Shown: positions 44,225-45,454, counted from the first letter of the stretch. The stretch: 64,000 nucleotides of DNA from Rhodobacter sp. (GCA_031425795.1 JANPJZ010000228.1:18-64017), one strand, 5' to 3'. The notes: a model not told the origin generated them from the sequence alone. Numbers and translations are program-made.

Positions 44225-45454
44225 ATGACTGATGAACTCAAACCTAAGCGCAAGTATACCAAGCGCGCCCGTGACGCAGACGGAAACCTGATTAAGCCAG
44301 CGAAGGCCCCGGCGGCAGCCAAGAAAGCCGCTGCCGTAAACCCGGACGACATCGCCAAAACGCAGGCCCTGAAGCCCGGGGAAACCTGGGTCGCCCCGAA
44401 GATCAAAGAGCCGGATGTTCGGCCGGCCATCGAGCTGTCGGAGGCTGACGTTGAGCTGGCGGACTCCACCGTGGAATCCAATGACGCCTACGAAGAGCCG
44501 AAGACGAAGCAGAAGAATCCGGTCATTGTACCACCGCCCGCAGAGGGCACCGAGGCCCGCTACCTGCAATCGCGAGAACTGCGAATGATGGTGCGCGGGA
44601 TGTACGATGTCCAAGGCCTCCGCATCCAGACGGGCAACCGGCTGGTGGGCCAGTACAAGGCTAAGTTAGGCCAGAGGCCGGGCGAGAAAGAGGACACGCT
44701 CGGTATCGAAAGTCAGGACATCCTGGCCGCGATCCGCCAGCAGTACGCGGTCATCGCGACCGCCCTGGCAGGCGGGGCCTACACGGTGTCGACGTTCAAG
44801 GCAGCGCCGCTCATCAGCAGCTACACCGAATACTGCCTCACCCGGCAGTACCTCCAGTTGCTGCAGACCGAGGTGGGCCATGCCAAGGCCATCGCGTCGC
44901 TGGTCGAAGAGTTCCCGATCTACAATGCGTTCTTCAAGGGCGTGACTGGCTGTGGTCCGATCCTCTCGGCAATCTGCATCGCAGAATTCGACCTCGACCG
45001 TGCACGCCACCCCTCCAGTTTCTGGGCCTACGCAGGCCTCGATGTCGGGCCGGATGGCCGGGGTCGCTCGAAACGGGCAGAGCACTTGGTGCCTGTCACG
45101 TACACCGACGCGAAGGGCGCCGAGCAGACGCGACAGTCGATCACCTACAACCCGTTTCTTAAAACGAAACTGGTCGGGGTGTTGGGCTCCAGCTTCATCA
45201 AACAGAACCCGGCGAAGTGCAAGTACCGCGCCATCTACGACAACTACAAACGACGGCTGGAGAACCGGCCGGACTGGTCGGAGGAATCGAAGGGCCATCG
45301 GCATGCCGCTGCGGTCCGATACGCGGTGAAAATGTTCGTGCTGGATCTATACCTGACGTGGTCACGGCTGGAGGGGCGTCCGACGTCCCAGCCGTATCAC
45401 GAAGCGAAGCTGGGCATATTCCATGGTGGAGTCGGCCCGGGGACGCACCAATAA
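44225..45454 (+). CDS. tasA: TasA-like Nop-domain RNA-guided protein (IS110/Nop5 related), no nuclease domain, N-terminal low-complexity extension
   Basis: Y..Q.LRI..GNRL coiled coil; GCGPILSAICIAE..SSFWAYAGL; YNPFLKTKL; Y..YK.R..GHRH..A.RY.VKMF; no DEDD RuvC; 3 nt downstream of the array. Confidence 0.85.
   Translation: MTDELKPKRKYTKRARDADGNLIKPAKAPAAAKKAAAVNPDDIAKTQALKPGETWVAPKIKEPDVRPAIELSEADVELADSTVESNDAYEEPKTKQKNPVIVPPPAEGTEARYLQSRELRMMVRGMYDVQGLRIQTGNRLVGQYKAKLGQRPGEKEDTLGIESQDILAAIRQQYAVIATALAGGAYTVSTFKAAPLISSYTEYCLTRQYLQLLQTEVGHAKAIASLVEEFPIYNAFFKGVTGCGPILSAICIAEFDLDRARHPSSFWAYAGLDVGPDGRGRSKRAEHLVPVTYTDAKGAEQTRQSITYNPFLKTKLVGVLGSSFIKQNPAKCKYRAIYDNYKRRLENRPDWSEESKGHRHAAAVRYAVKMFVLDLYLTWSRLEGRPTSQPYHEAKLGIFHGGVGPGTHQ

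Follow-up and report, generated by a model that had tools for sequence, protein, structure and literature searches.

The window analysed here, a stretch of 64,000 nucleotides from an assembly listed under Rhodobacter sp. (GCA_031425795.1, JANPJZ010000228.1:18-64017), carries a TIGR array, a degenerate terminal unit that closes it, and a reading frame that opens directly behind this unit. The product of the reading frame (44225-45454) is a dual-repeat TasA, a nuclease-less TIGR-associated protein, the folded part of which is preceded by an unusually long and charged N-terminal extension. TIGR-Tas systems were first described in 2025 (Faure et al., PMC12045711), and TasA, without a nuclease, is their commonest Tas protein, while TasR and TasH carry a RuvC or HNH nuclease in the N-terminal region (PMC12045711). 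The features of the locus are listed in Table 1.

Table 1. Features of the array-tasA locus, with positions counted from the first nucleotide of the window.
Feature	Coordinates	Strand	Properties and basis
TIGR dual-repeat array, 20 units	43436..44156	+	Unit chain and information content per column; lag-36 autocorrelation z = 10.5
Degenerate terminal unit	44157..44221	+	Two perfect small hairpins, plus a closing edge-like repeat (44214-44221) that ends 3 nt short of the ATG; sequence and fold
tasA coding sequence	44225..45454	+	409 aa including the extension; ORF list, 836 homologues, PHROG 4285, profile matches to TasR and SpTasH
Extension part 1, aa 1-60	44225..44404	+	Lys/Arg/Ala/Pro-rich, net charge +7, pLDDT 29-56
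Extension part 2, aa 61-91	44405..44497	+	Acidic stretch, net charge -9, pLDDT about 30
Extension part 3, aa 92-109	44498..44551	+	Short Lys/Pro linker into helix 1
Folded core, aa 110-390	44552..45394	+	Coiled-coil helices and Nop-type C-terminal domain; pLDDT mostly 85-96
C-terminal loop with Tyr391 and His400	45395..45424	+	Candidate Tyr/His dyad for pre-tigRNA processing; conservation and alignment to SpTasH
In-frame ATG ATG (Met121, Met122)	44585..44590	+	Only plausible downstream alternative starts; would give 288-289 aa
11-bp GC-rich hairpin	45467..45494	+	13 nt 3' of the tasA stop, without T-run; fold -25 kcal/mol, z -5.8

The array follows the 9+9+9+9, 36-nt layout of the dual-repeat TIGR architecture of Faure et al. 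2025 (PMC12045711). Its units are 35-38 nt long, mostly 36, and each consists of a first repeat (9 nt, ending in CC), a 9-nt spacer, a second repeat (9 nt, ending in CC or TC) and another 9-nt spacer, and a half-unit periodicity is apparent as well (lag-18 autocorrelation, z = 6.8). Both repeats end in CC and are followed mostly by a purine, the corresponding sequence in relatives being CCA, and about half of the repeat-2 copies contain UG and the rest CG, when this motif is defined as in the description of ParTasR. The repeat consensus on the tas-sense strand is the same in the arrays of relatives as here, and a 36-nt periodic array lies beside the gene in all 26 of the relatives' loci checked (from 80 related viral contigs). 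The two hairpins of the terminal unit (44155-44171 and 44190-44208) have 7 and 8 bp with 3-nt loops, are situated within both of its ‘spacers’ and fold jointly with -22.9 kcal/mol (z -2.1), unlike the 20 regular units. Targets of the spacers were sought by scanning the 20 units, in two pairings, two opposite-strand geometries and with gaps of 0-12, against the 4.27-Mb assembly, in which none were found at gap 0 with at most one mismatch. The spacer pair of unit 5 has an exact match in the form spacer 1-N10-reverse complement of spacer 2, i.e. with a 10-nt gap (contig C307:11965-11992), and that of unit 2 matches in an identical arrangement, gap included, with one mismatch (C56:416-443). Both are probably chance matches, as published Tas targets are a contiguous 18 bp and about 0.1-0.5 exact matches are expected by chance.

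The hairpin 3' of tasA likely marks the end of an array-tasA transcription unit; behind it follow an A-rich stretch and then a gene at 45511 with a good ribosome-binding site. Further downstream, on the minus strand (47577-53981), a single chain of 2,134 aa is encoded, the first half of which has domains of the Rpb2 (beta) type and the second half domains of the Rpb1 (beta-prime) type; it represents a fused multisubunit-type RNA polymerase of the phage, 2 kb from tasA. Upstream of the array, a second tRNA, identified by Rfam (42566-42637, 49.6 bits) and absent from the ARAGORN output, directly follows a tRNA-Pro (42482-42560), and a terminator-like hairpin with a T-run (42644-42666) lies 3' of it. 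Given this tRNA and hairpin, the open reading frame listed from 42580 more likely starts at 42706 and then encodes an Arg/Lys-rich protein of 233 aa, which has no family match and is not conserved beside tasA in relatives. Searches of PHROGs and Pfam with the neighbours of tasA gave no matches, and none of five neighbouring proteins was matched in the 80 related loci, so that no conserved accessory gene is apparent. In the nearest TasA clade (loci L002-L081, IMG/VR contigs), whose members are numerous both among viral contigs and in metagenome assemblies (ENA, JGI and Tara), the arrays are located either directly upstream or directly downstream of the gene, with the periodic signal in the latter case overlapping the last 15-40 nt or so of the tas match. 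The flanking genes are not common to these loci, which suggests a self-contained mobile cassette.

The identification of the protein as a dual-repeat TasA is based on profile and Foldseek matches, the adjoining array, the conserved tyrosine and histidine, and the lack of any detectable nuclease. A search of 5.8 billion protein clusters retrieved 836 relatives, the best 119 of which are 49-55% identical, 285-308 aa long and of the solo-Nop type, and cover only residues ~115-409 of the query; no relative above 55% identity was found. The PHROG 4285 family, annotated as ‘transposase’, matches residues 108-401 (E 1e-30), and in Pfam the whole protein gives only a weak match to Transposase_20 (the IS110 C-terminal or Nop-like domain) over residues 237-284. 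A profile of 39 relatives compared to PDB sequences retrieved TasR (9mty, E 9.5e-21) and SpTasH (E 1.9e-14). The AlphaFold2 model was built with this 39-sequence alignment, as the single-sequence model was uninformative (mean pLDDT 38), and reaches a pLDDT of 81-96 over residues 110-390, with the first helix beginning at residue 110; the predicted helices 110-147 and 161-182 (pLDDT 81-94) align with the coiled-coil of TaTasR. The first ten Foldseek ranks are all TasH or TasR with a probability of 1.00, the TasH structures 9vzx and 9w03 being best (E 4e-9, TM by target 0.73), and after the TasH and TasR structures (including 9mty) follow the recombinases IS621 and ISCro4 and then Nop5. An identity as IS110-family transposase was rejected, as there is no DEDD_Tnp_IS110 match, only the weak one to Transposase_20, and the N-terminus is predicted to be disordered.

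Nuclease domains were detected neither by Pfam, used on the whole protein and on the extension alone, nor by comparison of the extension with PDB chains, and from this absence we infer that TasA would not cleave DNA. In the C-terminal loop, Tyr391 is invariant in relatives and aligns with Y289 of SpTasH, and His400 is conserved in at least 90% and lies in a flexible loop 2-3 residues past the column of SpTasH H296; an HRH motif and Lys395 are also kept. As Y289 and H296 have a catalytic role in processing in SpTasH (PMC13421893), Tyr391 and His400 may be regarded as a candidate dyad for pre-tigRNA processing. The aromatic wedge of SpTasH, W203, aligns with an invariant glycine here.

The N-terminal extension is of a different character. 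Its first 60 residues carry a net charge of +7 and residues 61-91 one of -9, and the charge turns positive again in residues 92-120 (+3). Residues 1-105 have a pLDDT of about 30 in the model built with the alignment and are predicted to be disordered, and homologues align only from about residue 115-119. Most of what the earlier note had read from the sequence is borne out by these data: the basic patch, the Ala/Lys stretch and the acidic stretch are all present in the 409-aa translation; the boundary that it had drawn (~105 aa, 44225-44560) is accurate; the protein is a Tas protein in which no nuclease is detected; and the extension is placed at the N-terminus, at which TasR and TasH carry their RuvC or HNH domains (PMC12045711). 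The AlphaFold check that it had proposed gives a confidently modelled core and a disordered prediction for the extension. Its description of the basic patch as AT-hook-like does not hold, as the translation has neither a G-R-P core nor R-G-R and the extension alone has no Pfam match at E<=10.

No relatives of the extension were found elsewhere. HMMER searches of 1.84 billion representatives returned only the protein itself and four low-complexity matches, and the two of these four that were inspected are both tandem-repeat proteins, the E-values of which arise from one short chance match that recurs as many as 26 times. No match was obtained in the ESM Atlas, nothing relevant was found among PDB sequences, including TasR and TasH, and no paralogue is present in the 4.27-Mb assembly (tblastn, blastn). 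All close homologues are ~288 aa long and lack the extension, which is carried by one contig only. The open frame preceding the conserved motif is 126 codons long here, whereas across 60 related viral loci it mostly measures 8-20 codons and never exceeds 87. Scattered relatives (P0048, L006, L008 and L037) have a shorter disordered addition of some 17-25 residues at the N-terminus. By these searches the tail is a lineage-specific orphan with no conserved motif. As no relative has it, the tail could be translated and yet be neutral. A Lys-x-Ala prohead-protease code, which would point to a packaged and processed TasA, was rejected, the excess of K-x-A (four, by hand count, vs about 2.3 expected from composition) not being significant.

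On codon usage and on the layout of the junction with the array, the extension is translated. With 18 clear genes of the window as training set, the codon-usage log-likelihood of the 120 codons is +42.3 bits in the tas frame, the other five frames giving -36 to -138; over the array it is negative in all six frames, and the change to positive values in the tas frame falls exactly at 44225. The +42.3 bits correspond, in a leave-one-out control, to the 15th percentile of windows from real genes and exceed all 354 of the stop-free windows in non-coding frames (maximum 22.7). The extension scores +0.35 bits per codon and the core +0.28, and the GC contents at the three codon positions are 0.667/0.45/0.717 in the extension and 0.606/0.446/0.81 in the core, and flat in the array. 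The open frame itself opens only four codons upstream of the ATG at 44225. The strongest argument comes from the array edge, at which 3 nt separate the 8-nt closing edge-like repeat (44214-44221) from the ATG; an identical repeat, 3 nt and ATG are found in L027, and in L051 and L072 the repeat abuts the ATG. In all three of these relatives the ATG at the repeat junction opens the canonical short N-terminus, and since the junction here matches theirs, 44225 is, as judged from this layout, the ancestral start, behind which some 105-115 extra codons have been inserted. Another relative, P0076, also begins with Met-Thr-Asp.

The junctions extend over 44214-44227 in the window and over about 2327-2343, 3005-3015 and 2994-3003 in L027, L051 and L072, respectively, and a truncated last edge-type repeat is situated 0-3 nt before the tasA ATG here and in several relatives with upstream arrays. 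One possibility is that cutting by Tas in the edge repeats gives a nearly leaderless tasA mRNA, which would couple the maturation of guides to the translation of TasA.

The reading that we favour, with moderate confidence, is that of a dual-repeat TIGR-TasA phage system in which TasA would act as a guided roadblock repressor and its translated, disordered tail may modulate the contacts with DNA. The biochemical activities of TasA in this scheme are those inferred from homology. The array would be transcribed together with tasA, and TasA, through its coiled-coil and its Nop RNA-binding domain, would by homology dimerise on one tigRNA, the 36-nt guides being probably cut from the array transcript by its own C-terminal Tyr/His loop. 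Each RNP would then bind, but not cut, an 18-bp DNA target, using one 9-nt spacer for each strand, and the bound RNP would block transcription as a roadblock. The proposal of an RNA-guided DNA binder and transcriptional repressor had already been made in the earlier note, and it agrees with experiments on another TasA, MbTasA, for which RNA-guided transcriptional repression has been shown (bioRxiv 10.64898/2026.09.09.750476).

As to the tail, it would have been inserted just behind the ancestral start, at the end of TasA where TasR and TasH have their nuclease. Histone H1-like bacterial basic tails are Lys/Ala/Pro-rich, disordered and bind DNA non-specifically, and in a similar manner the basic Lys/Ala/Pro segment may make non-specific contacts with the DNA flanking the target and raise the residence time. 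The acidic tail of HMGB1 damps non-target binding, and the acidic segment here may do likewise by folding back on the basic part or on the DNA-binding surface. Both are analogies of mechanism with no sequence relationship, and the role given to the tail is a weakly supported guess from composition and analogy.

The main rival to this role is that the tail is translated and has no function, i.e. that it is a neutral spacer of low complexity which has expanded recently between start codon and coiled-coil and is tolerated because this end of TasA is free. We consider this unlikely, though to be reckoned with. It would agree with the orphan status of the tail, with its lack of a conserved motif and with its presence on one contig only, and the sporadic short additions in relatives, as well as the TasA clades with disordered N-termini of varying length (preprint 10.64898/2026.09.09.750476), point in the same direction. 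However, the codon usage of the tail is as gene-like as that of the core, which argues for long-term translation, and the clean split into a +7 and a -9 block is atypical of a random low-complexity expansion, neither of these points being decisive.

Another explanation, already put forward in the earlier note, makes the tail an effector or docking arm, the acidic stretch of which recruits the single-chain RNA polymerase of the phage, a sigma factor or a host protein, so that TasA would be an activator or a guided recruiter. We regard this as distinctly improbable. The tail is found at the N-terminus, the site of natural nuclease fusions (PMC12045711), and the beta-beta' RNA polymerase of the phage itself is encoded nearby. 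Engineered fusions of TasA to activators reportedly exist (bioRxiv 10.64898/2026.07.30.739400). However, Pfam, the ESM Atlas and PDB sequences gave no recognisable interaction motif or domain in the tail, no neighbour gene is kept beside tasA in the 80 related loci, and no target sites were found in the assembly in the contiguous geometry with up to one mismatch. A low probability is likewise given to the reading in which the phage RNA polymerase, sigma or a host factor docks on the acidic segment and the guides, 20 in number, would steer recruitment or activation to chosen sites instead of simply blocking them.

The earlier note had also considered that the true start may lie downstream, which would place it at Met121 or Met122 (44585 or 44588) and make the preceding 360 nt an untranslated leader that is open by chance. 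The resulting length of 288-289 aa would be the usual one of the family, and a Shine-Dalgarno motif is absent at both candidate starts, 44225 and Met121/122; this absence is uninformative, as most genes of the phage are without the motif. Against such a start stand the gene-like codon usage and GC3 from 44225 onwards, the 354 control windows and the array-edge/ATG junction conserved at 44225, as well as the low expectation of a chance open frame of 120 codons at this GC content (~2%, estimated from base composition). In addition, Met121 lies downstream of both the nearly invariant Leu119 and the beginning of the helix at residue 110, and relatives whose start is seven codons earlier often have an internal methionine at this place. 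A downstream start is therefore very improbable.

That the extension is the TIGR array running into the coding sequence, or an eroded remnant of a RuvC or HNH domain, is improbable to the point of dismissal: intragenic arrays in disordered regions have been reported for some tas genes and weak repeat-like matches occur at 44280-44330 (best 7.1 bits vs 3.8 at the 99.9th background percentile), but real units score 14-26 bits, the PWM from the 20 units does not exceed 7.1 bits anywhere in 44200-44640, the 36- and 18-nt periodicities have z = 1.0 and -0.4 in the extension vs 10.5 and 6.8 in the array, and the autocorrelation at lags 18, 36 and 72 is not significant against codon-shuffle nulls, while a nuclease remnant, for which the length similar to the RuvC region of TaTasR might speak, finds no similar PDB chain, including TasR and TasH, has no predicted fold and would call for a nuclease ancestor that is not parsimonious, as the near relatives are all solo-Nop.

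With a translated tail and a roadblock TasA as the preferred reading, the locus is a clean natural example of TasA in a large uncultured phage that encodes its own RNA polymerase. It shows that a long segment, charged and disordered, can be accommodated at the N-terminus of a dual-repeat TasA, the nuclease site in TasR and TasH. If the tail alters the affinity for DNA or recruits a partner, it would provide a natural template for compact guided effectors, and were it an effector arm, the TIGR-Tas family would have its first natural fusion to an effector other than a nuclease; if inert, it would mark a permissive fusion site. The layout of closing edge repeat, 0-3 nt and ATG gives a separate hint at a coupling of guide processing to TasA translation.

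Compared to known systems, the IS110-family recombinases (IS621, ISCro4) share a Nop-like RNA-binding domain with the protein, and this shared domain accounts for the Transposase_20 match and the ‘transposase’ annotations; however, a DEDD/RuvC-like N-terminal domain, a bridge RNA and element ends are all missing here, and the protein is not a transposase. The closest homologue in a cultured phage, also annotated as ‘transposase’, is ORF034 of Ralstonia phage phiRSL1 (345 aa, 33% identity over residues 112-401), which is likewise a jumbo-phage gene and is followed by a gene-free stretch of 1.4 kb, but has only about 16 codons before the aligned region and no long tail. Among solved structures, TaTasR (PDB 9mty) is the strongest sequence-profile match (9.5e-21) and has the same coiled-coil/Nop architecture. 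An active RuvC of about 120 aa precedes the coiled-coil in TaTasR, whereas the tail, of similar length, has no similarity to it and no predicted fold; in the profile alignment about 122 aa stand before the same conserved helix in TaTasR and about 127 aa here.

The best structural match, SpTasH of Salicola phage CGphi29 (PDB 9w03, 9vzx and 21kl; E 4e-9), is 29% identical over the C-terminal 165 aa, and both proteins are phage-encoded and belong to dual-repeat systems. Residues of SpTasH for RNA binding and processing have aligned counterparts in the HRH motif, Lys395 and Tyr391, whereas the processing histidine is offset by 2-3 residues and the W203 wedge aligns with a glycine. At its N-terminus SpTasH, which cuts DNA, carries an HNH nuclease, while a disordered tail precedes the coiled-coil here.

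The greatest likeness is to the TasA proteins (FpTasA in PMC12045711, MbTasA and PlTasA in 2026 preprints), with which the protein shares the coiled-coil and Nop domains, the lack of a nuclease and an adjoining TIGR array, and the activity expected here from this likeness is also the same, i.e. RNA-guided DNA binding and transcriptional repression. MbTasA and PlTasA have stem-loop guides, whereas the array here is of the dual-repeat type, and dual-repeat systems are described as keeping the conserved Nop domain (bioRxiv 10.64898/2026.09.09.750476). Compared to its dual-repeat TasA relatives (~288 aa), only the protein described here has a charged, disordered N-terminal tail of 105 aa. As repression by TasA and disordered N-termini in TasA clades are already contained in the preprint 10.64898/2026.09.09.750476, a long tail in a dual-repeat TasA represents a mild departure rather than a new kind of system, the tail itself being an orphan.
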